Below are positions 18,607-55,627 of a DNA stretch of 64,000 nt, piece after piece. This stretch comes from Thermodesulfobacteriota bacterium. Lineage in GTDB: Bacteria > Desulfobacterota > Desulfobulbia > Desulfobulbales > SURF-16. The DNA lies in contig JBMONN010000007.1 in the NCBI GenBank assembly GCA_049323935.1, positions 340-64,339 on the forward strand. The letters are read 5' to 3'. The stretch's first letter is position 1, and the number at the start of each line of letters is the position of its first letter. The position numbers and the translations under genes were made by a program. The notes under the pieces were generated by a model. That model saw nothing but the letters and a program-made list of their open reading frames with translations, did no database searches and was not told where the DNA came from.

Positions 18607-20102
18607 CCTATCACCGCCTTAACGAAGTTCATGAAAAAATCCGGATAGATACCGATTATAACCGAGATAATCGACGCTGTGAACAGCGGCACCACCATGG
18701 AGAGCGGCGCCTCCTTTACCCCCTCGTAGGGCTCGCCGGCCGGCCGCGGCCCGAAAAAGGCCTTGTAGGCGACCGGAGCAAAATAGCCGACGTTGAGCAA
18801 TGTACTGGCAAGCAGCACCAGCAGGATGCCAAGGGAGCCCGACTCGATGGTGCCGACCAGCAGCTCCCATTTGGTGACAAAGCCCGCCACCGGCGGAGCG
18901 CCGATCATGCTCAACGAGGCAATGGCAAAGGCAGCAAAGGTAAAGGGCATGGTCCGCCCCAGTCCGCTCATCTCCGAGATGTTCTTTTTGTGAGTGGCGA
19001 CATAGATGGCGCCGGCGCAGAAGAAGAGAGTGATCTTGGAGAAGGCGTGGTTGGCGATGTGGATGAGACCGCCGGCGATGCCGTGCGGAGTCAGCAGGCA
19101 GACGCCGAGAATGATGTAGGAGAGCTGACTCACGGTTGAATAGGCGAGCCTCGCCTTCAGATTATCCTTGGTCAGCGCGATGACCGAGGCCATGACAATG
19201 GTGAAGCCGACAAAATAGGCGGTGGGGATACCGAGATTCAACGCTCCCATCAGGTCGGTGCCGAAGACGTAGAGCATGACCCGGGCGGTGGAGAAGACAC
19301 CGACCTTGACGACCGCCACCGCATGAAGCAGGGCGCTGACCGGGGTTGGAGCGACCATGGCGCCTGGGAGCCAGTGGTGGAAAGGCATGACGCCGTTCTT
19401 GGCAAAGCCGAAAAGACAGAAGATAAAGAGCATGGTGACGAGCGCCCCGTTGGCCCCGTCCGGGATGATGCCGGTATTGATGTTATGGGGAAAATCCAGT
19501 GAGCCGGTCAGCACGTAAATAATGGCCAGGGCGGGCAGCAGAAAGGCCTTGGCCGTGGTAGTCAGATAGACGATGTACTTCTTGGCGCCCTCGTAAGCCT
19601 CTTCGTCCTGGTGATGGGCGACCAGCGGGTAGGTGCAGACGCTGACGATCTCGTAGAAGAGATACAAGGTGAAGAGATTGTCGGAGAAGGCGACACCGAT
19701 GGCGCCGAAGATGGCGATGGCAAAACAGGTGTTAAAACGGGTCTGGGCGTGTTCATGGAGGCCGCGCATATAGCCCATGGAGTAGAAGGCGGCGGCAATC
19801 CACAGCGACGAGGCAACCAGGGCAAAAATCATCGAGAGGGCGTCGGCCCGCAGGGTGACGGTGATACCCGGCAGGATCTTGAACATCTGGTAATAAAGGG
19901 TTTTGCCGGCGAGCACCGGAGAAATGAGACTGGCGACCAGGGAAAAGAGAATAACGGCGGAAACCACGGACCAGGTCTCGCGCAGATTGGGTTTCTTCCC
20001 GGAGAGGGACACCAGAAACGAGCCCAGCAGGGGAACGATCAGGGTCCAGACCAATTTACTCGTGGTGACAATCTCGCCTGTTGCGGCGCTGACGGTTTCC
20101 AT
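18603..20102 (-). CDS. Additional MrpD/NuoM-like antiporter subunit
   Basis: 499 aa. Motifs DNLFTLYLFYEIVSVCTYPLV and MPFHHWLPGAMVAPTPVSALLHAVAVVKVG. No C-terminal lateral-helix extension. Starts 15 nt after the nuoK stop. Confidence 0.8.
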   Translation of the reverse strand: METVSAATGEIVTTSKLVWTLIVPLLGSFLVSLSGKKPNLRETWSVVSAVILFSLVASLISPVLAGKTLYYQMFKILPGITVTLRADALSMIFALVASSLWIAAAFYSMGYMRGLHEHAQTRFNTCFAIAIFGAIGVAFSDNLFTLYLFYEIVSVCTYPLVAHHQDEEAYEGAKKYIVYLTTTAKAFLLPALAIIYVLTGSLDFPHNINTGIIPDGANGALVTMLFIFCLFGFAKNGVMPFHHWLPGAMVAPTPVSALLHAVAVVKVGVFSTARVMLYVFGTDLMGALNLGIPTAYFVGFTIVMASVIALTKDNLKARLAYSTVSQLSYIILGVCLLTPHGIAGGLIHIANHAFSKITLFFCAGAIYVATHKKNISEMSGLGRTMPFTFAAFAIASLSMIGAPPVAGFVTKWELLVGTIESGSLGILLVLLASTLLNVGYFAPVAYKAFFGPRPAGEPYEGVKEAPLSMVVPLFTASIISVIIGIYPDFFMNFVKAVIG

Positions 20103-20116
20103 GATTTTCCTCGATG

Positions 20117-20440
20117 CTATCCGTTAAGTTCAACCAGATCTTCGGTTTCAATGGACTTGTAATTTCTATAAACAGCCAGCACGATGCTCAGCGCAATGGC
20201 GGCCTCGGCCGCAGCAATGGCCATGATGAACAGGGTGATAATCTGACCGACAGTAGGATCCGGTGCAAGAAAACGGTTGAACGCCATGAAGTTGATCGAG
20301 GCGCCGCTTAATACGAGCTCCACGGCGATCAGCATGCCGATCAGGCTGGGACGACGCAGGAGACCAAAGATGCCAAAACCGAAGAGCACGGCACCGATAA
20401 TGAGATATGTATTGAGGTGGCTGCTGAGTGTCAACATCAC
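20117..20440 (-). CDS. nuoK: Complex I subunit K
   Basis: 107 aa with three TM segments, ND4L/NuoK-like (EAAIALSIVLAVYR). ATGA overlap with nuoJ. Confidence 0.9.
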   Translation of the reverse strand: MMLTLSSHLNTYLIIGAVLFGFGIFGLLRRPSLIGMLIAVELVLSGASINFMAFNRFLAPDPTVGQIITLFIMAIAAAEAAIALSIVLAVYRNYKSIETEDLVELNG

Positions 20441-20967
20441 GCGTTCCCCCTCCCGCTTCTGGCCAGCACCAGGGAACCGATAATGGCGACAAGCAGGACG
20501 ATTGAGATGAGTTCAAAGACCATGCTGTAGGAAGTCAGCAGGCTCATGCCCACCTCCTTCAACGAACCGTCATTTATTTTAGCAGCAGGCGACATCCACT
20601 GACCCTTTACCGCCGCATAACCCAGTGCATAGGCAAAGGCGCCGCCGCACACCGCGGCAAGCCCACCGCTCAAACCGGTGATTTTACGGGATTGGCGTGC
20701 CTCGTTTGGTTCGGCGAGCATGATGGCAAAGGCAATGGTGACGCAGACGGCGCCGACATAAATGAGCAGCTCCATCAGGGCCACGAAGGGGCTGTTCAGA
20801 TAGTAGTAAAGACCAGCGACGCCGAGAAAACAGACGGCCAAGCCGGTGACACTTCTGATCAGGCGCCTGGAACAGGTGGCGATGATCGCCCCCACCAAGG
20901 TGACGCCGATCACGGCCAGAAAAATGAGTCCGCCCAAGCCTTCCGGCGAAAACAGTGAAGGATTCAT
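20437..20967 (-). CDS. nuoJ: Complex I subunit J
   Basis: 176 aa membrane protein in the J position, with NuoJ-like LELLIYVGAVCVTIAFAIML. Confidence 0.85.
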   Translation of the reverse strand: MNPSLFSPEGLGGLIFLAVIGVTLVGAIIATCSRRLIRSVTGLAVCFLGVAGLYYYLNSPFVALMELLIYVGAVCVTIAFAIMLAEPNEARQSRKITGLSGGLAAVCGGAFAYALGYAAVKGQWMSPAAKINDGSLKEVGMSLLTSYSMVFELISIVLLVAIIGSLVLARSGRGNA

Positions 20968-21530
20968 CAGCTTTGTTCCTCCGCAGATTCTTTCTTGGCC
21001 GCCTGCTTCTTTTCCGCAGCGGCTTTCTTGGCTGCCTCCTTCTTTTCCTCCTCCTGCCTCAGGAGCTCCGGATCAACCTTGGGCTCAGGCACCCCTTCTG
21101 GATGGAGCCGTTGCAGGAGATCGAAGGTAAAATCCTCCCGACGGGTGCTGGCCAGGTTATAGTCCTTGGAAAAGGTGATAGCCTCGGGCTTGCAGTTATC
21201 GACACACTGGCCGCAGAGACTGCAGGTGGTGAAATTGAGTATATAGGCGGTCACCACCTTGCCCTTGACCCCGGGGCGTTTTTCCGACTTCACCGTGATG
21301 CAGCCGGACGGGCAGCCCTTTTCACACATACCGCAGGCAATGCAACGATGGGTGCCGGTCTTTTCATCCTTGACCATCTCGATGTGCCCCCGGTAGCGGG
21401 GAGTCATCTTCAGCGCTTCGTGGGGATACTGCAGGGTGATCGGTTTTTTAACAAATTCTTTAATGGTGATGTTCAGGCCGATCACCAGACTCTTGGTCCC
21501 GTTCAGCAAATCTCTAAAGTACCCGGACAT
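20967..21530 (-). CDS. nuoI: Complex I subunit I (2x[4Fe-4S] ferredoxin-like) with a Lys/Ala/Glu-rich C-terminal tail
   Basis: The track ORF extends to 21734. I place the start at the ATG at 21530 (MSGYFRDLLNGTKS...), 2 nt after the nuoH stop. Cluster motifs CIACGMCEKGCP and CSLCGQCVDNCP. Tail is ...EEEKKEAAKKAAAEKKQAAKKESAEEQS. Confidence 0.88.
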   Translation of the reverse strand: MSGYFRDLLNGTKSLVIGLNITIKEFVKKPITLQYPHEALKMTPRYRGHIEMVKDEKTGTHRCIACGMCEKGCPSGCITVKSEKRPGVKGKVVTAYILNFTTCSLCGQCVDNCKPEAITFSKDYNLASTRREDFTFDLLQRLHPEGVPEPKVDPELLRQEEEKKEAAKKAAAEKKQAAKKESAEEQS

Positions 21531-21532
21531 AA

Positions 21533-22516
21533 TCAGAAGACCTTTATGAATGCGGCGGTAAGCAGCAGGTTGACAAGCGAAAAGGGAATCAGGTATTTCC
21601 AGGAAAGATTGAGCAGACCCCAGAGGGTCACCCGCGGGTAGGTCCAGCGAATCCAGACAAAGCACCAGACCAGGAAATACATCTTGATGAGGAACCAGTG
21701 CACTCCGGGAAAGAGACCGAACGGACACTGCCACCCACCGAGAAAAAGAATGGTGGTAAGACAGCAGCCGACGACCAGGTTGGCGTACTCGGCCATCATG
21801 AAGAGACCGAAACCCATGCCGCCGTATTCGGTCATGTGTCCGGCGATCAGTTCGCTCTCCGCCTCGCCGAGATCGAAGGGCGCTCGGTTGGCCTCTGCCA
21901 GGGTGCAGACGAAGAAGACGAGAAAGGAAATCGGCATGAGGATCGACTTATCGAGCCGAAAGATGTTCCAGTTCCAGAACATGCCGCTCTGCTGACGGAT
22001 GATCTCGTTGAGATTCATGGTGCCTGCCACCATCACGATGGTCATGGCGGTGATCAGCATGGGGATCTCATAGGCGATGTTCTGGGAAACCGCCCTGGTG
22101 CCGGCGATCAGCGAATACTTATTGCGTGACCCCCAACCGGCGATGAGAATGGACAGAGCCGCCAGGGAGGCAAAGGCGAAGATCATCAGCAGCCCAAGAT
22201 CGAACTCCCTGGGCACAAGGGTCTCGGACCAGGGAATGGCGACATAGACGAGCACCGCCGGGGTCATGATAAGAATCGGTGCTGCCATGTAGAGGGCGCG
22301 ATCGGCGCCGTCCGGAATGATCAGCTGCTTGGACATCAGCTTGAGTCCGTCGGCCAGCGGCTGCAGCAGACCGTAGGGCCCGACCTCCTTCGGCCCGTTG
22401 CGGCGCTGGATATGACCCGCGCCCTTCCGCTCCACCCAGCCCAAATAGGCGAGATTGAGGCCGAGGAAGGCAGAAATACCGATCAGGTAACTGAGCACCC
22501 GTACCAATTCGTCCAT
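21533..22516 (-). CDS. nuoH: Complex I subunit H
   Basis: 327 aa. NuoH signature RAPFDLGEAESELIAGHMTEYGG. Confidence 0.93.
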   Translation of the reverse strand: MDELVRVLSYLIGISAFLGLNLAYLGWVERKGAGHIQRRNGPKEVGPYGLLQPLADGLKLMSKQLIIPDGADRALYMAAPILIMTPAVLVYVAIPWSETLVPREFDLGLLMIFAFASLAALSILIAGWGSRNKYSLIAGTRAVSQNIAYEIPMLITAMTIVMVAGTMNLNEIIRQQSGMFWNWNIFRLDKSILMPISFLVFFVCTLAEANRAPFDLGEAESELIAGHMTEYGGMGFGLFMMAEYANLVVGCCLTTILFLGGWQCPFGLFPGVHWFLIKMYFLVWCFVWIRWTYPRVTLWGLLNLSWKYLIPFSLVNLLLTAAFIKVF

Positions 22517-22527
22517 AATGTTTCTCC

Positions 22528-23649
22528 TTACCGGTCCATCTCCGGGATAACGAGATCAAGGCTTCCCATGAAGGCCAGCGCATCGGCAAGCAGCATGCCC
22601 CTGCTCGCCTCCTCGAACAGGCTGAGATTGGAGAAGGTGGGCGACCTGATCTTCATCCGGTATGCCTGATTGGTGCCGTCGCTGACCGCACGCATGGCGT
22701 AGGTGCCGCGAGCCGCCTCAACGGCGAAGTAGAAGTCGCCCTTCGGCGGTTTCAATGCCTTAGGCACCTTTTCCGCCATCACCGGTCCCTGTGGCAACTT
22801 GTTCAGGGCCTGCTCGATAATGCGCATGGACTGCATGATCTCATCCATCCGCACCATATACCGGGCCATGGAGTCGCATTCGGTATAGACCGGCACATCA
22901 AAGTCAAATTCCGGATACACACTGTAGGGTTCGTTCTTGCGGACATCAAAATTGACGCCGGAACCGCGCAGGACCGGGCCGCTGGCACCGTATTTCCGAC
23001 ACATCTCGGCGGAGACCGGGCCAATGCCGATAAGTCGCTCCATCAGAATGACGTTGCCGGTGACCAGATCGTGATACATGGGCATGCGGGCGCGAAGCCG
23101 CTTGATAAAGGCATGGGTGCCGGTAACGAAATCATCGTCGATATCGTTATAAACACCGCCGAAACGAAAATAACAGTAAGTGAGCCGCGATCCGGTGACC
23201 GATTCCAGCAGGTCGAGGATGATCTCCCGATCGTCAAAGGCGTAGAGAAGCGGGGTGAAGCCGCCGAGGTCGAGAACAAAGGCGCCGAACCAGAGAAGAT
23301 GGCTCTGGATGCGGTTGAGTTCCACGGTGATGACCCGGATGTATTCGGCCCGCTCCGGCACCTCGATACCCATGGCCCGCTCGACCAGACCGGCATAGCC
23401 GTGGTTGTAAGCCATGGCGGAAAGATAATCCATCCTGCCGAGATTGGGCCAGAACTGGTTCCAGGTGCGATTCTCACCCATTTTTTCATGCATGCGGTGG
23501 ATATAACCGAGCACCGGTTCCGCATTGACCACATACTCGCCATCCATGGTCAGCTTGACGCGGAGAACACCGTGGGTGGCAGGATGCTGCGGCCCCAGGT
23601 TCAGCTCGAAGGTCTCATACAGCTGGCTTTGGGCAAATGAACGGCTCAT
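22528..23649 (-). CDS. nuoD: Complex I subunit D (49-kDa/NiFe large-subunit-like)
   Basis: 373 aa. LNLGPQHPATHGVLR near the N-terminus. ATGA overlap with nuoC. Only 11 nt separate it from nuoH. Confidence 0.93.
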   Translation of the reverse strand: MSRSFAQSQLYETFELNLGPQHPATHGVLRVKLTMDGEYVVNAEPVLGYIHRMHEKMGENRTWNQFWPNLGRMDYLSAMAYNHGYAGLVERAMGIEVPERAEYIRVITVELNRIQSHLLWFGAFVLDLGGFTPLLYAFDDREIILDLLESVTGSRLTYCYFRFGGVYNDIDDDFVTGTHAFIKRLRARMPMYHDLVTGNVILMERLIGIGPVSAEMCRKYGASGPVLRGSGVNFDVRKNEPYSVYPEFDFDVPVYTECDSMARYMVRMDEIMQSMRIIEQALNKLPQGPVMAEKVPKALKPPKGDFYFAVEAARGTYAMRAVSDGTNQAYRMKIRSPTFSNLSLFEEASRGMLLADALAFMGSLDLVIPEMDR

Positions 23650-24239
23650 GGCTTATAATCCTTGCGTAATGGATAAAAATCCGCGTCATCGGGCAGGAGA
23701 AAACGTTCCAGTTGCGGGTGGCCGACAAAATTGATACCGAGCAGATCCCAGGTTTCCCGCTCATGCCAGTTGGCGCCAGGGAAAATGGCGGAAACGGTGG
23801 GAACATCCGGTTTATCGCGGTCGATGCGGGTTCGGACAACAACGCGGAACTGGGCCGCGCCGGTATAACTGTAATCGTAGATCACCTCGAACTGCTTGTC
23901 ATTGATCCAGTCGACTCCGGTTACCGCTTCTATGGTCATCCCCTCGTCATCGAGAATGGATGCCGCTTCAACCACCTGGTCAGGGGCAACCTGAACATCA
24001 AGATGGGTTCCCCGCTTGGCGTATTCGGTAACCAGGAGACCGTTTTCCCGAGGCTTTTCCACTTCCTTCTTCTTGCCCTTGGCATCTGTTTCTTCCCCGC
24101 CAGCCGGCGTCTCGGCTTCCTGCGGCGGGGATGACTGACCGGCAAGCCCTTGAGCAGCCAGCTTCTCCAGTTCACGTTGTATCTTCGCTCGATCCATATT
24201 CAGTACCATGTGTTCGGCTGCGGCCCGGGGGGCGGGCAC
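23646..24239 (-). CDS. nuoC: Complex I subunit C (30-kDa) with a charged N-terminal extension
   Basis: 197-aa ORF with a GTG start; the true start is uncertain (ATGs at 24209 and 24197, none with a clear SD). Core motif FPGANWHERETWDLLGINFVGHP. The first roughly 60 aa are a Lys/Glu/Pro-rich extension. Confidence 0.85.
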   Translation of the reverse strand: MPAPRAAAEHMVLNMDRAKIQRELEKLAAQGLAGQSSPPQEAETPAGGEETDAKGKKKEVEKPRENGLLVTEYAKRGTHLDVQVAPDQVVEAASILDDEGMTIEAVTGVDWINDKQFEVIYDYSYTGAAQFRVVVRTRIDRDKPDVPTVSAIFPGANWHERETWDLLGINFVGHPQLERFLLPDDADFYPLRKDYKP

Positions 24240-24263
24240 ACGAAAAAAGGCTGCGGGTGGGTT

Positions 24264-24782
24264 TTATTCCGGCGTGACCCGCGGCCAGCGGCGTTTACCG
24301 GTCAGCTTTTCCTCCAGGGCAAGAATCCCCTCGATCAGGGCCTCGGGGCGAGGAGGACATCCGGGAATGTAAACATCCACCGGCAGAAAGCTGTCCGCCC
24401 CCTCGACGACATTGTACTGCCCCTCGAAGACAAAGGGGCCGCCGGATATCGCACAGTTGCCCATGGCAATGACCCATTTGGGTTCCGGCATCTGATCATA
24501 GAGGGTCTTGACCGCAGGCAGCATTTTCTTGTTTACCGTACCGGCAACAATCATGACATCGGCCTGGCGCGGGGACGGACGAAAAACCTCGGCTCCGAAA
24601 CGGGCAAGATCAAAGCGGGAGGCGCCGGCCGCCATCATTTCAATGGCACAGCAGGCAAGACCGAAGGTCATGGGCCACAGCGAGTTGGCCCGGCACAGAT
24701 TGCGCAGTTTATCAAACTGGGCAAACTGGACTAACGCAGATGGTATGTTTTCCGTTCCCACTTGAACACTCCCTTTTTCCAT
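24264..24782 (-). CDS. nuoB: Complex I subunit B (N2 cluster subunit)
   Basis: 172 aa with cluster cysteines in [19 protein letters not shown] and [11 protein letters not shown]. The annotated start overlaps the nuoA 3' end by 52 nt, so the exact start is uncertain. Confidence 0.9.
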
Positions 24783-25135
24783 GCGTAAACGATCGCCAGG
24801 GACAGGATCCCGACAAAAATAACGATCTCAACAAAATCTCGGATGCCCAATGTGGCATCGTTGTAGGCCATGACGACCGGAAACAGAAAGAGGACATCCA
24901 CGTCAAAGGCCAGAAAGATCAAGGCATAAAGGTAATAGACGATGCCATAGCGAATCCAGGCGTCGCCAATGGGTTCCATGCCGCATTCAATCGGTTTGCC
25001 GGTTCTGTTGGCGACATTGCGGGTGGTACGTGGGGCGAAGAGGTAGGCGATAATGATGGGGCCGAAGCCGAAGGCGAGTCCGCAGAGGAGAAAGGCGGCG
25101 ACATAGAGGAGATCCAAGAGAGATTGCTGTTCCAC
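24731..25135 (-). CDS. nuoA: Complex I subunit A
   Basis: The track ORF runs to 25255. I place the start at the GTG at 25135 ([15 protein letters not shown]...), preceded by AAGGAG at 7-nt spacing, giving 134 aa. NuoA signature KPIECGMEP...[19 protein letters not shown]. Confidence 0.8.
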
Positions 25136-25282
25136 GAAGTTGCTCCTTTGCCCGTCCGCGCACAACAGCGGACGACACGCAAATGCCGGGCGCACGTCCC
25201 TGCATCGTAAATTTAGTGGATCTGGCCAGCACGGCCGACTCTTTTGGTCGTACACAACAGAAATGTTGCATACTTCCAGCCG

Positions 25283-33382: not shown

Positions 33383-34528
33383 TTACGGCTGTGCAATGAT
33401 GCCGGCGGCACTGATGCCGCGGATGACATAATCATCACTGCGCATAAAACCAGCAAAGACGATGAGAAAGGAAAGGGCGACCAGAGCCATCAGCCGTTTG
33501 TCACCGTAAAGGGCTGACAGCCGTTGCTGTTTTTCCTCCGGGCCGGTATGGACAAAATACCGACGGAACAGGCCGTCCAGGACATGGGGACCCTCCTCCC
33601 TGATACATTCGTAGCCGCCGTCATGGGAGTAGTCCATGACCTCGAAGAGAATGGCACGCTGCTCATCGGGATTTTTTATGTGATAGGAAAAGATATGGAG
33701 GAGGATGGTCTGGGCCTCGCGAATGCTGGCCACCGCCAGTGAGTAGAAGAGTTTGCGGGCCGCCACGGTCAGCGGAATCGCCTCGGCCCGCAGCATGGAA
33801 AGGAGCACCGCGTTCTTGTAAAGCTGATAGAGTCGCATGGCGCCATTAATCCGGCCGGCGACCGGATGCGGCTCGCTCAACCCCTGGCCTCGGTAGGAGT
33901 TGACAAAGAGGATGTCGAAAATGAGCTGAAAGCAGCGGGACCGGTCCGTGGAATCCTGCAGATCGACCCGCAGATCAAAGGTATTGTCGAGCCGATCAGC
34001 CAGTTTCACCGCCACCAGCTCCGGCGCTTCCCGGGCCTTGCCCAGCAGGCGGCCAAGGTAACCGGTGTACTGCTCACCTTTCGGCTTGGCGAGAAAGGCG
34101 ATCCGTTCATTGAGAAACCAGTTCGCCCGGGCGTCGATCTTTTCCAGCAGCCGCCGATATCTGGCATCGAGGCGGTTCCAGGTTTCAGGACTGTACTTCT
34201 CAGGAGTCAGGTCTTCACCCTTGTCATGCAGGAGGGCGCAGAGCAGATCAAGGGTGCTCGGCCTGCCAGCGGCCTTGACCAGCAGGGCGGAGGCGCGGAT
34301 CGGGTGGAGGATGGCCAGAGGACCGAGACGGCGTTTCTGCCGACCATAGGCCTCGCCGAGGTAATCGAGTGCCTCGACAAGAAAATCCTCGGAGAGCGGG
34401 TCGAGTTCGTAGTTCTGCCCCAGCATCAGATTAAGGATGCCCCGCCAGCTGACCGGGTCGCCTTCGAGCTGATAGTTAAGAAAGGAGGAGAGGGCGAGAA
34501 ACTCCTGGGTATCGATGAGCGGCTTCAT
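33383..34528 (-). CDS. HD-domain protein with a RelA/SpoT-hydrolase-like N-terminal half
   Basis: The track ORF starts at a TTG at 34546; the ATG at 34528 is preceded by GGGGGG. Motifs HPIRASALLV...LLCALLHDKGEDL and VAVKLADRLDN resemble the (p)ppGpp hydrolase HD fold. The C-terminal roughly 180 aa is unassigned. Confidence 0.6.
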   Translation of the reverse strand: MKPLIDTQEFLALSSFLNYQLEGDPVSWRGILNLMLGQNYELDPLSEDFLVEALDYLGEAYGRQKRRLGPLAILHPIRASALLVKAAGRPSTLDLLCALLHDKGEDLTPEKYSPETWNRLDARYRRLLEKIDARANWFLNERIAFLAKPKGEQYTGYLGRLLGKAREAPELVAVKLADRLDNTFDLRVDLQDSTDRSRCFQLIFDILFVNSYRGQGLSEPHPVAGRINGAMRLYQLYKNAVLLSMLRAEAIPLTVAARKLFYSLAVASIREAQTILLHIFSYHIKNPDEQRAILFEVMDYSHDGGYECIREEGPHVLDGLFRRYFVHTGPEEKQQRLSALYGDKRLMALVALSFLIVFAGFMRSDDYVIRGISAAGIIAQP

Positions 34529-34667
34529 GCCGGCCCCCCCGAACAAAGATCATTTTTACCACTCTGACACAAACTCTTTCGCGGCTTTTCAGCAAGCAAA
34601 TACCCCCTCCATGACCGCTTTGCCTGTCCCGAACCGCCTGTCCCGTTCAATGGACGGGCGCCCCCTG

Positions 34668-35648
34668 TCATTCCAGCCATTGCCGGGCACGGGCGGCCTC
34701 CAATACCAGGTTCTTCAATCCGGTAATGAAGGTGGGCATGACATTGAGTGACTCGGTGCGGGCAAGCTCCATCCCGAGTCCGGCCGCCAGCTCGCGGTAC
34801 TCGATGTCGATTTCATAGAGCGTTTCCACATGATCGGAGACAAAGCTGAGCGGGACCAACAGCACCTGCCTGCACCCGAGACCGGCCACCTCCCGCAGGG
34901 TATCCGGGGTCGACGGCGCCAACCACTCTACCGGGCCACTACGGCTCTGAAAGCAGAGGGTACCCGCCACACCGGTCAGCTTTTCCACTGCCCCGATGGT
35001 CTCTTGCAGATGTTCGAGATAGGGATCCCCTTCCCGGATAAAGGAGACCGGCAGGCTATGGGCGCTGTAGAGGAGACGGACCTCCTTGCCGGCGAATTGC
35101 TCCATACCGCGGACAATGGTGTCGGCCAGACAGCGGACATAGTCGGGCTGCTCCGGCCAGGCTGCGATCTCGGCGATATCGAAACCGGGCGAAAAGGAGG
35201 CGGCGACCCGCCGGAGGTCGTCTAGTGACGAACCGGTGGTGGCCTTGGAGTAGTGCGGGTAGAGGGTAAGCGCCACCAGCCGGCTGATCCCGGCGGCCGC
35301 CATGCTCCTGAGGGTCTCGTCGGCAAAGGGATGCCAGTAACGCATGGCCATGTCCACCGTGAAGGCGCCATAAGGGACAAGATCATGGGCCAGCGCCGCT
35401 CCCTGCTCGCGGGTCAGCCTGTTCAGTGGGGAGCCGCCGCCGATCAGTTTATAGGCCCTGCTGCTCTTGGGGGCGCGGCGTTTGGCGATCATCCAGGCAA
35501 TGGGCTTTTGCAGGAAGGGGGGACCAAGGCGGATGATCTTGCGGTCCGAAAAGAGGTTGTAGAGAAAGGGCCGGACATCGGCAAGACGCTCCGGTCCGCC
35601 GAGATTCAGGAGAATGACGCCGATGGGCGTCCCGGCGCCTTTTTTCAT
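34668..35648 (-). CDS. hemH: Ferrochelatase (protoporphyrin or coproporphyrin type not resolvable by eye)
   Basis: 326 aa. N-terminus GVILLNLGGPERLADVRPFLYNLFSD and SAHSLP, ferrochelatase signatures. Confidence 0.88.
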   Translation of the reverse strand: MKKGAGTPIGVILLNLGGPERLADVRPFLYNLFSDRKIIRLGPPFLQKPIAWMIAKRRAPKSSRAYKLIGGGSPLNRLTREQGAALAHDLVPYGAFTVDMAMRYWHPFADETLRSMAAAGISRLVALTLYPHYSKATTGSSLDDLRRVAASFSPGFDIAEIAAWPEQPDYVRCLADTIVRGMEQFAGKEVRLLYSAHSLPVSFIREGDPYLEHLQETIGAVEKLTGVAGTLCFQSRSGPVEWLAPSTPDTLREVAGLGCRQVLLVPLSFVSDHVETLYEIDIEYRELAAGLGMELARTESLNVMPTFITGLKNLVLEAARARQWLE

Positions 35649-36205
35649 ACCTTCCCCTCCGCGCCCGACCGGAGCAGGTCGGCCACCTCGCCAGGCGCAA
35701 AATCGAGATAGCTAAATATCCGCTTTTCCATGGCCATGCACTTGTGAAAATTTTTCATGATCGAGGCATGGCGGGTCGCATCATTACGACCATACCGCTC
35801 CAGGATATAAGCCAGCCGGTCGTGCAGGCTGACCACCCGGTCGTGGTTGACCCGCTTGTCGGCGTAATAGACGATCTCCTTTTCGCTGATCGGGTCGTGC
35901 CCGTTGGAGCTGATCAGCACATGCTCGGCAACAATGGCGGCAATCTCACTGTAGCCGTGGCGCCGACAGATCTCCTCTCCCATCCTGGCGTGATCGCAGC
36001 GGCTTTCCAGGCAGGGGGTCTTGGCAATGTCGTGGAGCAGGGAGGCGGCTACCACCAGCTCGATGTTGATTGCCTCACCCCGGCGGACAAATCCGCTGGC
36101 AATGAGCTCCGCCACCCGGGCAACCACCCTGGAATGCTCGCGGATGTTGTCGAGCATTGCGTACTCGTCCATCAACCGCAGACAGGTTTCAACCGTGGGA
36201 ATCAT
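35645..36205 (-). CDS. HD superfamily phosphohydrolase (YqeK-like size)
   Basis: 186 aa. HD motif SLLHDIAKTP with an upstream EHSRVVARVA. Its stop overlaps the hemH start (ATGA). Confidence 0.72.
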   Translation of the reverse strand: MIPTVETCLRLMDEYAMLDNIREHSRVVARVAELIASGFVRRGEAINIELVVAASLLHDIAKTPCLESRCDHARMGEEICRRHGYSEIAAIVAEHVLISSNGHDPISEKEIVYYADKRVNHDRVVSLHDRLAYILERYGRNDATRHASIMKNFHKCMAMEKRIFSYLDFAPGEVADLLRSGAEGKV

Positions 36206-36231
36206 GATGGTCTCGTAAAAACCCGCAAATT

Positions 36232-36312
36232 ATGGCAGGCGGGAAAATGAAAACAACGAGTCACAAAACACGACCAGTCGGAATCGTGGTTTTTTTTACG
36301 ATTCCGACAATC
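36232..36312 (+). repeat. Copy 1 of a roughly 78-nt intergenic repeat (A-rich leader plus hairpin)
   Basis: ATGGCAGGCGGGAAAATGAAAACAACGAGTCACAAAACACGACCAGTCGGAATCGTGGTTTTTTTTACGATTCCGACAATC, with a perfect 11-bp stem GTCGGAATCGT/ACGATTCCGAC. Fills most of the hemE-HD spacer, in the orientation opposite to both genes. Confidence 0.8.
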
Positions 36313-36328
36313 ATGACAGACCATTTAT

Positions 36329-37357
36329 TTAACGGGCCGACAGCCGGTGGACGGCCTCCACGACAAATTTCGCCTTCTCCGGCGGCGTCTCGGGCAGAAT
36401 CCCATGCCCCAGGTTGAAGATGTGGCCCTTGGCCCCTTTCCCCCCTGCCAGAATACGGGCAATGCGCTGTTCCAGTTTGTCTTCGGGCAGCAGCAGGGCG
36501 CAGGGATCGAGATTGCCCTGCACCGCGATATCCGGGCCGAAAACCTTCACCGCATCGGCGATATCCACCCGCCAGTCGAGCCCCTGGACATCGGCGCCGC
36601 AGGTTTTGCTCAGCTCCATCAGGGTGGCGCCGTTGTTGGCGAAATAGATGAGCGGCACCCCGGCCGGTTTGAGGGCGGTGATGATCTGTTTGACATAGGG
36701 CAGGGCGAACTCCTCGAAATCACAGGGAGCCAGTGCCCCGGCCCAGGAGTCAAAGATCTGCAGGGCCTGGGCCCCGGCGGCAACCTGGGCCTGCAGATAG
36801 CTGATCACCGATTCCGTCACCTTTTCCACCATCGCCTTATAGAGTTCCGGGGCGGCGTACATCATTTTCTTGGTCTGGAAAAAACTCTTCGAGGAGCCGC
36901 CCTCGACCATGTAAGTCGCCAGGGTAAAGGGCGCGCCGCAGAAGCCGATAAGCGGCACCTTCTGGGCCAACTCCCGCCGGAGAATACGGATGGTTTCCAT
37001 CACATAGCCAAGGGCATCTTCCGGGTCGGGGACAATGAGCCGATCCACATCCTGTTTGCTGCGGATCGGCTGCGGCAGCACCGGCCCCTGTTTTTCCCTG
37101 AATTCGAGGGGCATGCCCATGGCGTCCAGGGTAACGAGAATATCGGAAAAGAGAATCGCCGCATCAACCCCGAGGATATCCACCGGCTGCAGGGTAACCT
37201 CGGCGGCCAGTTCCGGGGTCTTGCACAGTTCCAGAAAGGTCACCTTGCCGCGCACCTTGTGATAATCGGGCAGATAACGGCCGGCCTGACGCATGATCCA
37301 GATGGGGGTGTGGCTGACCGCTTCGCCTCTGCATGCCTTGAGAAAATTGGTGTTCAT
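36329..37357 (-). CDS. hemE: Uroporphyrinogen decarboxylase
   Basis: 342 aa. N-terminus PIWIMRQAGRYLPDY and the downstream GAPFTLATYMVEGG are HemE signatures. Confidence 0.93.
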   Translation of the reverse strand: MNTNFLKACRGEAVSHTPIWIMRQAGRYLPDYHKVRGKVTFLELCKTPELAAEVTLQPVDILGVDAAILFSDILVTLDAMGMPLEFREKQGPVLPQPIRSKQDVDRLIVPDPEDALGYVMETIRILRRELAQKVPLIGFCGAPFTLATYMVEGGSSKSFFQTKKMMYAAPELYKAMVEKVTESVISYLQAQVAAGAQALQIFDSWAGALAPCDFEEFALPYVKQIITALKPAGVPLIYFANNGATLMELSKTCGADVQGLDWRVDIADAVKVFGPDIAVQGNLDPCALLLPEDKLEQRIARILAGGKGAKGHIFNLGHGILPETPPEKAKFVVEAVHRLSAR

Positions 37358-37388
37358 TCGTTTTTCCTTGGGTAATTGTGATAAGCCG

Positions 37389-38453
37389 TTACATCTTTTT
37401 CAGTTTCACCGGCATATGGGAGCAGAAGGGCTCCTCCGCCATGTAATCGCCGGTCATGGCATAGGCCCGGGCTCGGCAGCCGCCGCAGACCGAAACATAT
37501 TCGCAGGAGCCGCAGCGGCCCTTGTATGCCTTGAAATCACGCATATCCTGAAACAGCTTCGAGTTTTCCCAGATATCCTTGAATGACTGCTGACGGATAT
37601 TGCCGGCACTCATGGGAAAATAGCTGCACGGCAGGACGTTACCGTCCACATCGATCAGGCAGATGAGCTGGCCGGCCAGACAGCCCTTGGAGCCGCCGGT
37701 GGAGAATTTGAGACTGCGCCGCTGGAAATCATCACCGCTCTCCTTTTTCTTCTGGAGGACGATCCGGTAGTAACTGGGGGCGCAGGTGGGCCGCACCAGA
37801 ATGTCGTCTTCCTGCCGTTCCATGTCATAGTGCCATTCCAGCACCCTTTCATAATCCTCCATGGAAACCAGCTCCTCCATGATCTCCTCGCCGCGGCCGG
37901 TGGGCACGATCATGAACATGTACCAGGCAGTGGCTCCCAGTTCCTTGGCCAGTTTGTATATCTTCGGGATCTCCTCCTGATTCCGTTTGGTGAAGGAGGA
38001 GTTGATAAGAAAGGAGATGTCATGTTTTTTAAACAGGGCCGCTGCATTGAGGGTGCCGGCAAAAGCGCCGGGCTGATTACGAAAATTGTCATGGACCGCG
38101 GCAGAGGCGCCGTCAAGGCTTAAAGAGACCATCTTGATGCCCGCTTCCTTGATTTTGCCGCAGGTCGCCTCCGTTACCAGAGTACCGTTGGTTGCCAGAC
38201 ACATACGCAATCCCTTGCCGGTGCCGTAGGCGGCGATGTCAAAGACATCATGGCGCAGCAGCGGCTCGCCACCGGACAGCACCACAACGGGGTTAGCATA
38301 GGAAACGATGTCGTCGAGCACCCGGGTGGCCTCGGCAAAGGAAAAATCCGGATGCCCAGCCACCTCAAGCTCGGAGGAGGAACGGCAGTGAACGCATTTG
38401 AGATTGCACCGCCGGGTGATCTCCCAGGCGATCCATTTTGGTTCGAATTTCAT
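37389..38453 (-). CDS. Radical SAM/SPASM enzyme, AhbC/AhbD/NirJ-like
   Basis: 354 aa. [14 protein letters not shown] radical SAM cluster, GGEPLL, and a C-terminal Cys-rich SPASM region (CLAG...LPCSYF...[20 protein letters not shown]). Confidence 0.8.
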
Positions 38454-38506: not shown

Positions 38507-39829
38507 CTACAGATAATCAGCCGCCACCGCCGCCAGAGGACTGCGCTCGCTCTTGCGCAGGGTGATGTGACCGTGGATCGGCAATTCCTTGAGACGCTCC
38601 ACCGTGTATGTCAACCCGTTACTGCTGGAATCGAGATAGGGGTTGTCGATCTGGTAGGGATCGCCGGTCAACACCATCTTCGTTCCCTCACCGGCCCGGC
38701 TGATGATGGTTTTGATCTCATGGGGGGTCAAGTTCTGTGCCTCATCGACAATGACGTACTGACCGGAGATGGAGCGGCCGCGTATGTAGGTCAGGGCTTC
38801 CATCTCCACCACATGATCCCGCAGCAGCTTGTCCGTCTTGTGGCGGAGGGAATCGTCATTCTCCTTGTTTTTCGGTCCCTGTCCGACACCCATGAGAAAG
38901 GTAAGGTTGTCGAAAATCGGCTGCATCCAGTGGGCCAGTTTCTCATCCTTGTCACCCGGCATGTAGCCGAGATCCTTACCCAGGGGAATGATGGGCCGGG
39001 AGACGAGAATCTTGCTGTAGCGCTTGTTGATCAACACCTCCTCGAGGCCGGCGGCCAGGGCGAGCAGGGTCTTACCGGTGCCCGCCTGGCCGACCAGGGT
39101 AACTATTTGGACATTCGGGTCGAGCAAAAGTTCCAGACACATCCGCTGTTCCTTGCTGCGGGAACGGATCTGCCAGGCGCTGTCATACTGAGGGTTAAGT
39201 CGCACCAGCCGCATTTCGTTTACCGCCCTGGCCAGGGCGGTATGCTTGGGGTCGGCCTCATCCTGTAACAAAATGAATTCATTGGGCACCAGACCGAGGC
39301 CCTCGCTTTCCACCTCGCGTCGGTCATAAAAGGTATTGATCAGCTCGCCCGGCACCGTCAATTCACGGTAACCGGAAAAAAGCTCATCGAAGTTGATCTT
39401 CTGCTTTTCAAAGTCCATGACCTCTATGCCCAGGGCGTCAGCCTTGAGGCGGGCGTTGATGTCCTTGGAAACGAAGATGACCCTTTCTCCTTTCTTGAAG
39501 ATGGTATAGGCCACCGCCAGGATGCGGTTGTCCGGAACCTTCATGTTGAGTCCGGGACAGCAGGCTATCTCATCGCCCTCGGGATAGATGAGCAGGATGC
39601 CGCCGTTTTCCATTTCCACGCCTTTGGCCAGCTTGCCCCGACAACGGAGATGGTCGAGCTCCCTGATCACCCGGCGGGCGTTACGGCCCAGCTCGTCACT
39701 CCGGGACTTGAATTTGTCGAGTTCCTCGATGACCGACATGGGCAGCACGACATAGTTATCGGAAAAGGAGAAAATGGAATCAGCGTTATGGAGGAGAACG
39801 TTGGTGTCGAGGACAAAATATTTTCGCAT
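38507..39829 (-). CDS. PIN-domain/PhoH-like ATPase (YlaK type)
   Basis: The track ORF starts at 40000. The ATG at 39829 ([15 protein letters not shown]...) gives a PIN N-terminus. Walker A is [11 protein letters not shown], followed by a PhoH C-terminal core. Confidence 0.85.
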
Positions 39830-40066
39830 GCAGCGGCTCGTAACGAAATTCGGAGTTAAGGGGCGAAAACGGTCAGGAGTAACGGCCGTGCCATGCCGCA
39901 GCGCCGGACTGTCATGTGTTGCGGTGGCCGACCTCAAGGTCGGCATTGTTCCAAGAGTAGTATGAAACCCCCTGTTCCCGCAAGCAAAACTTACCGACAC
40001 CAGCGCATTCGGCCTGCCGCTGTCCGCCCTTCCCGGAAAATTGATGCGGCAGGAGAACGCGTATTG

Positions 40067-41722: not shown

Positions 41723-43519
41723 ATGAAGCCCCGCCTTGCTCTCCTCTTTATGCTGCTCTGCGTCCTTTTTCTCGTGATCCGGGAAAATCTGACCAAACGG
41801 CCCGAGCGTCTCCACCAGACCAGCGCCGGCCAGGTGGAGATGTGCCTGGAGTGCCACAAAACCGAACAACTCGATCCCGCCCATGACCGGTTGGTGATGG
41901 GCTGCTCTCCCTGCCATCTCGGTGACGCCCTGGCCATTGACAAGGACAGGGCGCACACAGCCATGGTCAAAAACCCAGGCGACCTGCGGGTGGTGGAAAA
42001 AACCTGCGGGGTGGAGGGCTGCCATGCGCCGGACGTGAAAAAGGTCAAAAATTCGCTGATGGCCACCAACCGTGGCATCCTTGCCACCCTCCTCTACTAC
42101 TGGGGCGAGGCGCCGGACCAGAACGGCGATTTTTCGGTGGAACAGCTGCTGGCCAGCAACCAGACCTCCCTGGCCATCGACTACTACCGAAAACTTTGCG
42201 CCACCTGCCACCTCTGGAAACAGAAAGGCGACCTGCCCGGTTTCTTCGGGGAAAAGGGCGGCGGCTGCACGGCCTGCCACTTTGTCAAGGACGGCAACCT
42301 CACTGCCGAGCAGGCGAAAAAGGTACATCCGCGCATCGTCAAACAGGTGCCGGTGAGCAACTGTGTCCGCTGCCACAACCGCAGTGGTCGCATCGGCATC
42401 TCCTATACCGGCGTCTATGAGTCGGAAAACTACGGCACCCCCTACACCAAGGGCGGCATGTCGGAAAAACGGCTGCCCGGCGACCGCTATTATCTCAGCC
42501 TGCCCGCTGATATCCACCACCAGAAAGGCATGGCCTGTATCGACTGCCACACGAGAAACGAGATCATGGGCGACGGCACCCGTTACGCCCATTACGAAAA
42601 CCAGCTTGAAATCACCTGCAAAACCTGTCATGTTCCGGCTGGCGAGACGACGAACGAACCTGGCTTGACCCGCAAAGGCGATAAACTAACAAACATCGTT
42701 GGCGACGAGGCGGGCTGGCAGCTGACCAACAAGCTCACAGCCGACAAAAAGCACCCCATCCGACCGCCCAAGGCCGGGATCTGCGACTTTGCCGGCCACA
42801 AGCGGGTCGGCTGCGAGGCCTGCCATTCCGGCTGGGTGCCGCAGTGTTACGGCTGCCACGTCAAGCAGGACAAAAGGGAAACCGATCTCGACAAACTGAC
42901 CTTGACCGAAACGCCGGGCTGGTGGATTGAGGGTCGCTCCTCTCTCCGGTACGAACGGCCGATGCTGGCCGTCTGGGCTGACGAGGTGGTGATCGTCACC
43001 CCCGGCTGCCAGGACATCGTCTCGGTGGTCAACGCCCAAGGCAAAGCGGAGCAACACTTCAACAGCCTGACCATGGCCGCCATCAACCCACACACCACCC
43101 AGACCAGGGGACGAAGCTGCGCTGACTGCCACCAGTCGCCGAAAACCATTGGTCTCGGCGAGGGCACCATCTGGCGGGAAGCGGGCGAGTGGCGTTTCAA
43201 TGCCGCGGCCCAAGGGCTTGTCACCGCGGCAGGCGTCACCCCGCCGCTTGACGCCTATGTCGCCATTGACGGGACCCCCTTACAGAAATCGGCCCGGCCC
43301 GATCTGCGGCCCTTCAACAAAGAGGAACTGGCCCGCATCCTCCGTGTCGGCCTCTGCATCGACTGCCACAAGGAGTACTCGGACCCGGCTTACCGCACCT
43401 ATACGCCGGCAACAACATGCCCGGTCTATCGGGAAGAGAAAGATGGTGGGCCGGCACCCCAGAAGAATCCCGCCATTACCGCCACGGAAAAAAAACCGGC
43501 GCTGGAGAAAAAACCATGA
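41723..43519 (+). CDS. Multiheme c-type cytochrome (11 CxxCH plus 1 CxxxxCH) with an N-terminal signal/anchor
   Basis: 598 aa. Hydrophobic N-terminus MKPRLALLFMLLCVLFLVI. Heme motifs in order: CLECH, CSPCH, CGVEGCH, CATCH, CTACH, CVRCH, CIDCH, CKTCH, CEACH, CYGCH, CADCH, CIDCH. Starts 1 nt after the nadE stop, and its stop overlaps the hisD ATG. Confidence 0.85.
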   Translation: MKPRLALLFMLLCVLFLVIRENLTKRPERLHQTSAGQVEMCLECHKTEQLDPAHDRLVMGCSPCHLGDALAIDKDRAHTAMVKNPGDLRVVEKTCGVEGCHAPDVKKVKNSLMATNRGILATLLYYWGEAPDQNGDFSVEQLLASNQTSLAIDYYRKLCATCHLWKQKGDLPGFFGEKGGGCTACHFVKDGNLTAEQAKKVHPRIVKQVPVSNCVRCHNRSGRIGISYTGVYESENYGTPYTKGGMSEKRLPGDRYYLSLPADIHHQKGMACIDCHTRNEIMGDGTRYAHYENQLEITCKTCHVPAGETTNEPGLTRKGDKLTNIVGDEAGWQLTNKLTADKKHPIRPPKAGICDFAGHKRVGCEACHSGWVPQCYGCHVKQDKRETDLDKLTLTETPGWWIEGRSSLRYERPMLAVWADEVVIVTPGCQDIVSVVNAQGKAEQHFNSLTMAAINPHTTQTRGRSCADCHQSPKTIGLGEGTIWREAGEWRFNAAAQGLVTAAGVTPPLDAYVAIDGTPLQKSARPDLRPFNKEELARILRVGLCIDCHKEYSDPAYRTYTPATTCPVYREEKDGGPAPQKNPAITATEKKPALEKKP

Positions 43520-49275: not shown

Positions 49276-49671
49276 TCAGGAGGCATTTTCCCGCATCTCC
49301 TCGAAATATTTCCGGTCCGTGCCAAGGATATGGTTTTTCAGCCAGCTGACGAGAAATTGTAAGACATCAAGGGTGATGTCGGCCTTTCCCTGCAGATAGT
49401 CCTTTTGCAGTTGCAGGGTTTTCCTGACAAAAGAAAAATGCTCGCGGCGGTGCTCCTCAAAGTGCGGATGGGCTTGTAAATACCCTTCCTCACACTTGAA
49501 GTGAAAATCGATGTAGTTAACCATCTCTTCGAGCACCTCGGGCAACCCGGCCTTATCCGGACCGCCGAAATTCTCGATAAAACGGTTAAGCAGGGCAAAG
49601 AGTTGCTGATGCTGCCGATCGACCTCCTCCACCCCGACATTGTATTTTTCTTCCCATTTGACCAGATCCAT
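49276..49671 (-). CDS. Bacteriohemerythrin
   Basis: The track ORF starts at 49707. The ATG at 49671 (MDLVKWEEKYNVGVEEVDRQHQQLFALLN), with GGGAG upstream, matches the canonical hemerythrin N-terminus. His/Glu/Asp iron ligands are in H-x-x-x-E and HFxxEE contexts. Confidence 0.8.
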   Translation of the reverse strand: MDLVKWEEKYNVGVEEVDRQHQQLFALLNRFIENFGGPDKAGLPEVLEEMVNYIDFHFKCEEGYLQAHPHFEEHRREHFSFVRKTLQLQKDYLQGKADITLDVLQFLVSWLKNHILGTDRKYFEEMRENAS

Positions 49672-49734
49672 CCCATGCTCCCACTTGCCCGATCCCGCCA
49701 TCGACACATGTCGGTGGCAACCGGTTGTTCATGA

Positions 49735-50457
49735 TTATTTTTTCCCCTCTGCCTCCAGGGCGGCAAGATAGGGGCCAAACAGCTCGTCATAGTCCCGCAG
49801 GCCCTTTTTGAGGATCAGGGGAAAGGCGGAAAGATCGTTGTCGTTGATAACCAGATTGGCGCTGTTGGCGAGGGCCTCGAGGTTGTACAGGGTGTGAAAC
49901 TGCGGCCCGACCAGCACATAAAAGATGGAGCGGCGGCTGGTCATGGGCATTGTCTGCATATGGGCATGCACGGTGGAAGATACCAGCTCTCCCTCGAAAG
50001 CTGCATGCAGCACCACCGCGGCGACGGTGGTGAAGCGCATCCGCTCCAGGGCGTCCTCCTCGCTTTTCGGCAGGATCGGCTTGTACCCCATATCATCGAA
50101 AAACTGGGCCATATCGATGCGGATCTGCTCATCCTCCATCAGAATGATGACCTGCGGCACATCCTCGATGACCTCGCCGGTGCCGAGATCCCCGCGCTCG
50201 AGCCAACCGAGATCGGGCGGCCCTGGAGGCGGAGGCGTCCTGCCGGGCGCCGTGCTCCGGCGAAGAGGTGGAGTGACGAGTTGCCCCGTCGTCTCGGTCT
50301 CTTCCTGTCTCCGCACCTCGATCGGTTTCTGACAGTGAGGGCAGTTGAACTTCAACGCCCGGCCCGGCGGCAGGGCGGCAAGGGCATGTTCAATCTTCTG
50401 CCGCTGCGCCTCGTTGAGCCCCAGCTCCCGGCCACAGTTGCTGCATACGGATATCAT
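49735..50457 (-). CDS. Zinc-ribbon protein with a C-terminal receiver-like (apparently non-phosphorylatable) domain
   Basis: 240 aa. N-terminal CSNCG...CPHC ribbon, a Pro-rich linker, then QVIILMEDEQ...YKPILPKSEEDALERMR...VAAVVLHAAF, which reads like CheY beta1-beta3 with His where the acceptor Asp is expected. By eye only. Confidence 0.6.
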   Translation of the reverse strand: MISVCSNCGRELGLNEAQRQKIEHALAALPPGRALKFNCPHCQKPIEVRRQEETETTGQLVTPPLRRSTAPGRTPPPPGPPDLGWLERGDLGTGEVIEDVPQVIILMEDEQIRIDMAQFFDDMGYKPILPKSEEDALERMRFTTVAAVVLHAAFEGELVSSTVHAHMQTMPMTSRRSIFYVLVGPQFHTLYNLEALANSANLVINDNDLSAFPLILKKGLRDYDELFGPYLAALEAEGKK

Positions 50458-55592: not shown

Positions 55593-55627
55593 CTATTCCC
55601 GTCCCCAGTTCGAGGGGAGCAGCCATT

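Follow-up and report, generated by a model that had tools for sequence, protein, structure and literature searches.

How is heme b completed in an organism whose hemE and hemH genes stand beside a gene for an AhbD-like radical S-adenosylmethionine (SAM) enzyme? The question is posed by four genes on contig JBMONN010000007.1 (assembly GCA_049323935.1, Thermodesulfobacteriota bacterium), within a 64-kb stretch that is called the window here. In the list of open reading frames (ORFs) of the window the four are consecutive, all on the minus strand, and match the coordinates of the initial annotation exactly. The first in the direction of transcription (37389-38453, 354 residues) encodes an AhbD-family radical SAM/SPASM enzyme, assigned by its best match to TIGR04545 and by its cysteine motifs. 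It is followed by hemE (36329-37357, 342 residues), which encodes the uroporphyrinogen III decarboxylase UroD and was identified with TIGR01464 (452.6 bits, cut-off 303) and a full-length Pfam URO-D match (465 bits); by a gene for an HD/HDIG metal-dependent phosphohydrolase-like protein (35645-36205, 186 residues; Pfam HD, TIGR00277 HDIG); and by hemH (34668-35648, 326 residues), which encodes a ferrochelatase of the PpfC sequence type (TIGR00109, 294.6 bits, cut-off 125; Pfam Ferrochelatase, 348.8 bits). The radical SAM gene and hemE are separated by 31 nt, and hemE and the HD gene by 123 nt. The stop codon of the HD gene (TGA) and the start codon of hemH (ATG) form an ATGA overlap at 35645-35648 on the minus strand, read directly from the sequence as '...aag gta tga' / 'atg aaa aaa', which indicates translational coupling of the two genes; the junction, ggaggggaaggtATGAaaaaaggc, includes a purine-rich, ribosome-binding-like stretch. 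The gene identities given initially (AhbD-like radical SAM enzyme, hemE, HD protein and hemH) and the ATGA coupling proved correct by ORF list, family scans and sequence reading. On balance, we lean towards the view that the cluster encodes late heme b synthesis of a Desulfobulbales-type anaerobe, in the form of a coproporphyrin-type hybrid terminated by AhbD.

The radical SAM protein contains Pfam Radical_SAM (72 bits) and SPASM domains, and its best NCBIfam match is TIGR04545 (AhbD), at 441.9 bits over the full length. The other families scored 324 bits (TIGR04053), 308 bits (NirJ2), 218 bits (NirJ) and 211 bits (AhbC), with AhbC, NirJ and NirJ1 together in the range 203-218 bits and peptide-maturase families at 90-160 bits; AhbD is ahead of every other family by more than 115 bits. 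The radical SAM motif CX3CX2C is present (C16-X3-C20-X2-C23), as are eight auxiliary-cluster cysteines, C224X33C258X17C276X37C314X2C317X5C323X2C326X17C344. The latter fit exactly the full SPASM motif given by Fix et al. for the AhbDs of methanogens and sulfate reducers, CX20-33CX17CX36-37CX2CX5CX2CX17-35C (PMC10452713). Several of the closest proteins are named 'heme b synthase' by JGI. An exact-match lookup of the protein returned no record, and a PDB sequence search for an AhbD structure found none, the best match being PqqE at 76 bits.

Relatives were collected by an exhaustive search of 1.84 billion representatives, in which the next proteins outside the clade share 41-46% identity with the window enzyme. 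Among the best 150 representatives, 22 are AhbDs fused to siroheme decarboxylase AhbA/B domains (NirDL-like HTH plus AsnC-type); such fusions are unambiguous siroheme-pathway AhbDs, which use coproheme. In a neighbour-joining tree calculated without bootstrap, the clade of the window enzyme is nested within the radiation of these AhbA/B-fused proteins. By sequence, the protein is thus placed in the AhbD radiation, not with AhbC or NirJ, as a distinct subclade linked to hemE. The initial description as AhbC/AhbD/NirJ-like can accordingly be narrowed to AhbD by hidden Markov model (HMM) scores, motif, fusions and tree; placed against AhbC, AhbD and NirJ, the protein groups with the AhbDs and not with non-heme SPASM families (HMM scores and tree). 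The fused proteins are 470-995 residues long (radical SAM, SPASM, NirDL-like HTH and AsnC-type domains; for example P0247, P0252, P0255, P0259, P0262, P0264 and P0268, with 15 more) and join the first and the last enzymes of the siroheme-to-heme branch. Long AhbD relatives of about 690 residues were also considered as AhbD-HemE fusions; this was ruled out, as their domains are those of AhbD-AhbA/B.

Residues of the hemE-linked clade were compared with those of 132 AhbD relatives. All polar positions conserved in at least 90% of sequences are kept (H22, R67, D69, S112, D114, H121, R125, N158, R305, R327 and R329). The single non-conservative clade-specific change is Q149L, at a position occupied by Gln in 100% of the fused AhbDs. 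Retention of the conserved polar positions with Q149L as the sole such change argues for an unchanged substrate pocket. The enzyme is predicted to carry out an oxygen-independent oxidative decarboxylation of propionate to vinyl in the heme pathway.

What sets the subclade apart is its genomic setting. The closest proteins (79-92% identity) are from Desulfurivibrionaceae, Thiovibrio and Desulfobulbia. One genome per species was scanned, which gave 80 loci at 72-99% identity in Desulfobulbales (Desulfobulbus, the cable bacteria Ca. Electrothrix and Electronema, Desulfurivibrio and Thiovibrio) and in Nitrospirota (Nitrospira, Thermodesulfovibrionia and Magnetominusculus). The cluster is present in complete genomes, among them Thiovibrio sp. 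JS02 (CM130715.1), T. frasassiensis, Ca. Electrothrix YB6 (CP178758.1), Desulfobulbus elongatus DSM 2908 and Nitrospira spp. In all loci with enough downstream sequence (78/78), hemE is the next gene downstream of that for the radical SAM enzyme and shares its strand (median gap, 63 nt); the linkage of the two genes is therefore not due to chance. This universal synteny supports a functional tie between the radical SAM enzyme and HemE-dependent heme synthesis. Longer architectures could be counted in 68 loci with enough downstream sequence: rSAM-hemE-HD-hemH in 26, rSAM-hemE-HD in 19, rSAM-hemE in 14 and rSAM-hemE-hemH in nine (rSAM, radical SAM gene). The cluster contains hemH in 35/68 loci, and the HD gene follows hemE in 45/68. 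Intact rSAM-hemE-hemH-hemY arrangements were found at four Nitrospirota loci, and a fifth (L048) has a fragmented hemY copy. Outside this set, the 50%-identity cluster that includes the window enzyme has just one more distant member, P0241 (57% identity), for which hemE overlaps the stop codon of the radical SAM gene. Little was learned from the contexts of P0246, P0258 and P0261, where contigs are too short or neighbours are unrelated; P0261 adjoins hemB. A 3.5-kb contig labelled 'Promethearchaeota archaeon' (L035, JAIWHJ010000301.1) carries PhoH2 and a radical SAM gene with 79% identity to that of the window, and is most likely a mis-binned Desulfobulbales contig.

In the pathway that we favour, HemE forms coproporphyrinogen III, as its family membership shows. 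Coproporphyrin III would then be made by an oxidase encoded outside the cluster, and HemH would insert iron to give coproheme. The AhbD-like enzyme would turn coproheme into heme b with no need for oxygen or peroxide, as its homology to characterised AhbDs suggests; the chemistry would involve SAM-derived 5'-deoxyadenosyl radicals and two auxiliary [4Fe-4S] clusters. Substrate iron is needed for efficient turnover by the AhbD of Methanosarcina barkeri (PMC6013774), which favours coproheme as the substrate of a close homologue. Motif, phylogeny and pocket conservation all mark the enzyme as an AhbD, and characterised AhbD relies on the iron of its substrate; the hybrid is accordingly taken as the best explanation. 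The hybrid pathway proposed initially, in which HemE and a coproporphyrin ferrochelatase feed an AhbD-type decarboxylase, thus stands as the most likely reading in that an AhbD-type enzyme is tied to HemE; its CpfC-type ferrochelatase does not stand, as set out below. Nor is the concept new. The coproporphyrin-dependent (CPD) pathway's last step is said to be catalysed 'in some organisms by AhbD' (PMC7242693); ahbD co-localises either with hemY/hemH/hemQ or with ahbA/B/C (PMC10548856); AhbD is present in CPD organisms that have none of the other Ahb enzymes (PMC13564367); and an AhbD-like enzyme 'might be responsible' for the last CPD step under anaerobic conditions (PMC10114771). These reviews already state a CPD pathway that ends in AhbD, so that what had been put forward as a new idea is a prediction previously drawn from gene co-occurrence. 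The cluster is a new lineage-level instance of this predicted AhbD-dependent hybrid and a strongly conserved heme operon. No discussion of heme synthesis in Desulfobulbales was found in the literature searched.

Several points weigh against the coproheme order. The AhbD score (441.9 bits) is below the NCBI trusted equivalog cut-off of 500 for TIGR04545; the nearest 50%-cluster representatives are likewise under it (358-497 bits), so that the low score reflects a narrow model and not a different family. That the gene is tightly paired with hemE, and not with hemH, would suit an enzyme whose direct substrate is the HemE product. To our knowledge, AhbD assays have been confined to settings other than HemE/HemH. 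Neither of the coproporphyrinogen oxidases CgoX and CgoN is encoded in the 64-kb window, and we know of none from anaerobes of such a kind. Scans of about 50 further ORFs of the window with Pfam or NCBIfam found no hemN/F, hemY/G/J, chdC, cgoN or ahbA/B/C, with five ORFs having no family match of any sort (965-1594, 49338-49790, 49735-50457, 55436-55972 and 57394-58365). Searches of the window by tblastn with cluster-linked HemY, E. coli HemN and E. coli HemG gave no match; together, the two kinds of scan uphold the initial observation that hemN/F, hemY/G/J and chdC are missing from the window. Related loci totalling 1.4 Mb likewise yielded no true HemN. These absences of hemN, hemF and chdC from the window, and of HemN from the related loci, speak for the hybrid and not against it.

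The remaining points of this kind come from the ferrochelatase and from the HemY linked to the cluster in Nitrospirota. Compared with PDB entries, the window HemH scored 218.6 bits against human PpfC (full length) and 171 bits against the yeast enzyme, versus 102 bits for Bacillus subtilis CpfC, 93.5 bits for Listeria monocytogenes CpfC and 73.6 bits for an actinobacterial CpfC (28WN). A HemH from a Nitrospirota cluster showed the same preference for PpfC over CpfC. For residue comparisons, HemH was aligned with the PpfCs of human and E. coli and with the B. subtilis CpfC, whose sequence was checked to be that of 1AK1. The spacing from the GGP to the GGxSP motif is 50 residues in the window HemH and 50-51 in 33/33 cluster HemHs, whereas human PpfC has 47 and the two solved clades of CpfC, with the short lip of soluble enzymes, have 34 each; by its sequence, this segment is the hydrophobic 'lip' typical of membrane-associated PpfCs. 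All cluster HemHs have the human-type R164/Y165, for which B. subtilis has K87/H88. In L. monocytogenes CpfC, T14 and Y124 form hydrogen bonds to propionates 2 and 4, the two extra ones of the substrate (PMC9794026); the window HemH has Gly and Ser at these positions, as does human PpfC, and the cluster HemHs have Gly at the first and Ser or Thr at the second. The position of the proximal human residue M76 is Leu in the window HemH, as in E. coli PpfC, and Leu or Met across the cluster HemHs; in CpfC it is Tyr in Firmicutes and Phe in Actinobacteria (PMC10427985). The catalytic His and Glu and the propionate-binding residues R115, K118, Y123 and S130 (human numbering) are conserved. Y46 and S53 are also conserved but are universal, and the window HemH has no C-terminal [2Fe-2S] extension. 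The cluster HemH therefore looks like a protoporphyrin-type (PpfC) rather than a coproporphyrin-type (CpfC) enzyme, and the coproporphyrin ferrochelatase of the initial annotation was not borne out when CpfC and PpfC were compared by scores, lip length and active-site residues.

Similarly, the four intact cluster HemYs are closer to Myxococcus xanthus PgoX than to B. subtilis CgoX (291 versus 212 bits for the copy at L078). They keep N63, R95, F329, G330, F331 and L332 of M. xanthus PgoX, of which R95, F329 and L332 were reported by Zamocky et al. to be strictly conserved in PgoX, with small residues in all CgoX (PMC10740692). For both HemH and HemY, these substrate signatures derive from few characterised enzymes and from small alignments dominated by Gram-positive CPD enzymes. 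hemW lies upstream of the cluster in two of the HemY-bearing Nitrospirota loci. This HemN-like gene was examined as a true HemN, which was ruled out: it encodes HemW, with 336 bits for TIGR00539 (above the cut-off) and a score for TIGR00538 that is below the cut-off of that model. At one Nitrospira locus (L034, 13209-14411), the gene after hemH encodes a divergent FAD protein of 400 residues that matches HemY at the N-terminal FAD motif only, scores 73 bits with TIGR00562 (below the cut-off) and has none of the residues of the PgoX pocket; it may be a porphyrinogen oxidase of another kind.

The alternative that survives best takes these signatures at face value. In such a protoporphyrin order the radical SAM enzyme would be an AhbD-derived substitute for HemN that converts coproporphyrinogen III to protoporphyrinogen IX (or, in a variant, coproporphyrin III to protoporphyrin IX), followed by a PgoX-type or other oxidase and finally by a PpfC-type HemH. 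We consider this unlikely, though far from negligible. It would explain why 33/33 cluster HemHs are PpfC-like by score, lip insertion and residues, why the cluster HemYs keep PgoX residues and resemble PgoX of M. xanthus more than CgoX of B. subtilis, and why hemE is the one partner that never varies, in most cases no more than tens of bases from the radical SAM gene. The Nitrospirota arrangement hemW-rSAM-hemE-hemH-hemY, in which the HemN-like gene is HemW, would then be a complete set for the protoporphyrin-dependent (PPD) pathway. One change of specificity would suffice, compared with two for the coproheme order, and the position of the protein under the AhbD equivalog cut-off leaves room for it. 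The AhbD of M. barkeri itself binds metal-free coproporphyrin III with a Kd only twofold weaker and has trace activity on it (PMC6013774). Set against this, the predicted pocket is nearly the same as in siroheme-pathway AhbDs, with Q149L alone non-conservative; characterised AhbD uses the substrate iron as an electron relay (PMC6013774); enzymes that share 41-46% identity and the very same cluster motifs with true AhbDs usually have their substrate in common too; and the PgoX and PpfC signatures, given the small, Gram-positive-dominated alignments, may mark the diderm lineage and not specificity; CPD organisms that contain ChdC occur among diderms as well (Acidobacteria, Planctomycetes, Deinococcus).

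It is correspondingly doubtful, but would be of consequence, that the hemE-linked AhbD subclade has switched to the metal-free HemE product and represents a previously unrecognised coproporphyrinogen dehydrogenase unrelated to HemN. If so, Desulfobulbales (cable bacteria included) and many Nitrospirota would run the protoporphyrin order, for which UroD, PpfC, a PgoX-type oxidase and the AhbD-like enzyme would suffice. In that case genome surveys are placing them in the coproporphyrin pathway by mistake, and rules of pathway assignment in which AhbD serves as a CPD marker would have to be revised.

Much less probable than either order is that the protein is an ordinary terminal AhbD of the siroheme pathway, with ahbA/B/C encoded elsewhere and the adjacency of hemE and hemH due to a second or vestigial route or to operon history. 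Its nearest relatives are indeed siroheme-pathway AhbDs, AhbA/B fusions included, and sulfate and sulfur reducers make siroheme anyway. However, HemE has no role in that pathway, yet hemE adjacency holds at 78/78 loci over two phyla, aerobic Nitrospira included, and hemH, hemY and hemW often join the rSAM-hemE pair. Genes resembling ahbA/B/C are neither present in the window nor recurrent neighbours among 83 loci.

The HD protein raises a separate possibility, which we rate as very improbable: that it belongs to the pathway enzymes proper, for instance as the missing porphyrinogen oxidase that needs no oxygen, or as a factor handling iron or substrate. Its gene lies between hemE and hemH, is translationally coupled to hemH and follows hemE in 45 of the 68 loci. 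Among the surveyed loci it occurs in the heme cluster in Desulfobulbales only; it is never found in a HemY-bearing locus, nor is HemY found where it is present. This exclusion coincides with the split between the phyla and so amounts to a single phylogenetic event, which makes it weak evidence. The protein has the invariant HD ligands H24, H58-D59, H95 and D116 and, beyond these metal ligands, four invariant or nearly invariant cysteines. An AlphaFold2 model (pLDDT 93) has an all-helical HD fold, for which Foldseek ranked SP1746, YqeK and further small HD hydrolases highest (TM of about 0.5, probability 1.0). Fold and motifs are thus those of small nucleotide phosphohydrolases, and no flavin-, heme- or quinone-binding signature was found in the protein, which is limited to one order. 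The HD protein was also considered as a recognisable oxidoreductase; its matches to small HD hydrolases give no support to this. The default and most likely reading is that of a co-transcribed passenger or regulator of the nucleotide phosphohydrolase type rather than a pathway enzyme.

The family of the HD protein is small and appears to be confined to Desulfobulbales; about 1,900 homologues were found, under generic names at their source. The protein is also similar to the HD part at the C-terminus of NTP-transferases of the DVU_1551 family. With SP1746 of Streptococcus pneumoniae and the Ap4A hydrolase YqeK it shares the all-helical fold, the H...HD...H...D ligands and a size of about 190 residues; it differs in sequence (15-19% identity, with a TM of about 0.5) and in its four conserved cysteines. 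A fixed place inside a heme operon is a feature of this protein that is not known for the SP1746 and YqeK families. At two Nitrospirae loci (L037, 12661-14800; L038, 7405-8667), PAS and HD-GYP signalling proteins are encoded between hemE and hemH; they are of another HD-family kind but stand where the operon of Desulfobulbales has its HD protein.

That the radical SAM protein is instead a non-heme SPASM enzyme (a peptide or cofactor maturase) beside heme genes by chance is effectively refuted by scores, tree and synteny. In its favour are the diversity of SPASM enzymes, the score under the AhbD cut-off and the lack of a solved AhbD structure for comparison (best PDB match PqqE, 76 bits). Against it, AhbD scores 442 bits and peptide-maturase families 90-160 bits, the neighbourhood has no gene for a precursor peptide, the hemE linkage is universal and the clade is nested among AhbA/B-fused AhbDs.

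The surroundings of the cluster were also surveyed. A promoter and terminator scan did not define the operon limits, as no signal exceeded the shuffled expectation. A weak terminator-like hairpin followed by a T-run lies at 36269-36288 on the minus strand, within the 123 nt that separate hemE from the HD gene; the region shows no significant enrichment of terminator-like sites. Rfam identified two tRNAs only in the window and no riboswitch near the heme cluster, and a megablast search of the cluster against plasmids gave no match and was uninformative. A PIN-PhoH2 gene (RNA helicase/nuclease type; 38507-40000, minus strand) is found upstream of the radical SAM gene, 53 nt away and in the same orientation. 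Thiovibrio and many Desulfurivibrionaceae-like loci share the order PhoH2-rSAM-hemE-HD-hemH, which Desulfobulbaceae and Nitrospirota do not have. On the other side, 121 nt downstream of hemH and on the same strand, a second, larger HD-domain protein of 387 residues is encoded (33383-34546, minus strand; weak RelA/SpoT-type HD match), which is kept solely in the closest relatives (L004 and L006). A multiheme cytochrome c of 598 residues with 11 CxxCH motifs (41723-43519, plus strand) is encoded directly after nadE, 3 kb from the heme cluster; the NadE-cytochrome pair was seen again in 19 related loci. Farther away are a Nuo-type complex I operon (13519-25255, minus strand; NuoA, B, C, D, H, I and J) with four antiporter-like (Proton_antipo_M) subunits, whose genes do not include those for NuoE/F/G, and a further radical SAM protein of 312 residues (62711-63649, plus strand) with weak MoaA/viperin-like matches only.

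Heme is indispensable to the organisms that bear the cluster. The gene for the 11-heme cytochrome is 3 kb away, and cable bacteria and Nitrospira share the cluster. The subclade is a clean test case, with 72-99% identity over two phyla, constant pairing with hemE and occurrence in isolates such as Thiovibrio, Desulfobulbus elongatus and Desulfurivibrio. At stake are whether AhbD closes a HemE-based pathway, whether PpfC and PgoX signatures predict substrate, and the missing oxygen-independent porphyrinogen oxidase of such anaerobes.

Among known systems, the PPD pathway (HemN/CgdH, PgoX/PgdH, PpfC) shares with the cluster HemE and a PpfC-like HemH (lip, R164/Y165 and propionate-binding residues), a PgoX-like HemY in Nitrospirota and, as in HemN, radical SAM chemistry from propionate to vinyl. 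It differs in that neither HemN nor HemF is encoded in the window and in that the radical SAM enzyme is unrelated to HemN, being of the SPASM type with one SAM site and descending from coproheme-using AhbDs. The CPD pathway (HemE-CgoX-CpfC-ChdC) shares HemE, a ferrochelatase and a coproheme-decarboxylase-type enzyme encoded together, and the Nitrospirota clusters resemble the B. subtilis hemEHY operon with ahbD added. An oxygen-independent last step would fit an anaerobe, and the AhbD alternative for this step goes back to Dailey et al. (2015), as cited in PMC10548856, PMC7242693 and PMC13564367. Unlike in the CPD pathway, the ferrochelatase and the linked HemY carry PPD-type signatures, an extra HD gene is present, CgoX, CgoN and ChdC were not found in the window, and the host is a diderm anaerobe and not a Gram-positive bacterium. 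Another counterpart is AhbD (heme b synthase, EC 1.3.98.6) of Desulfovibrio vulgaris, Desulfovibrio desulfuricans and M. barkeri, with which the window enzyme shares the radical SAM plus full SPASM architecture, identical CX3CX2C and eight-cysteine motifs and the family-invariant polar residues. It differs from these enzymes in forming a separate subclade below the trusted cut-off and in Q149L; its gene adjoins hemE (and hemH/hemY), unlike ahbA/B/C-linked AhbD, and the subclade, unlike the characterised AhbDs, is distributed over Desulfobulbales and Nitrospirota, including aerobic Nitrospira.

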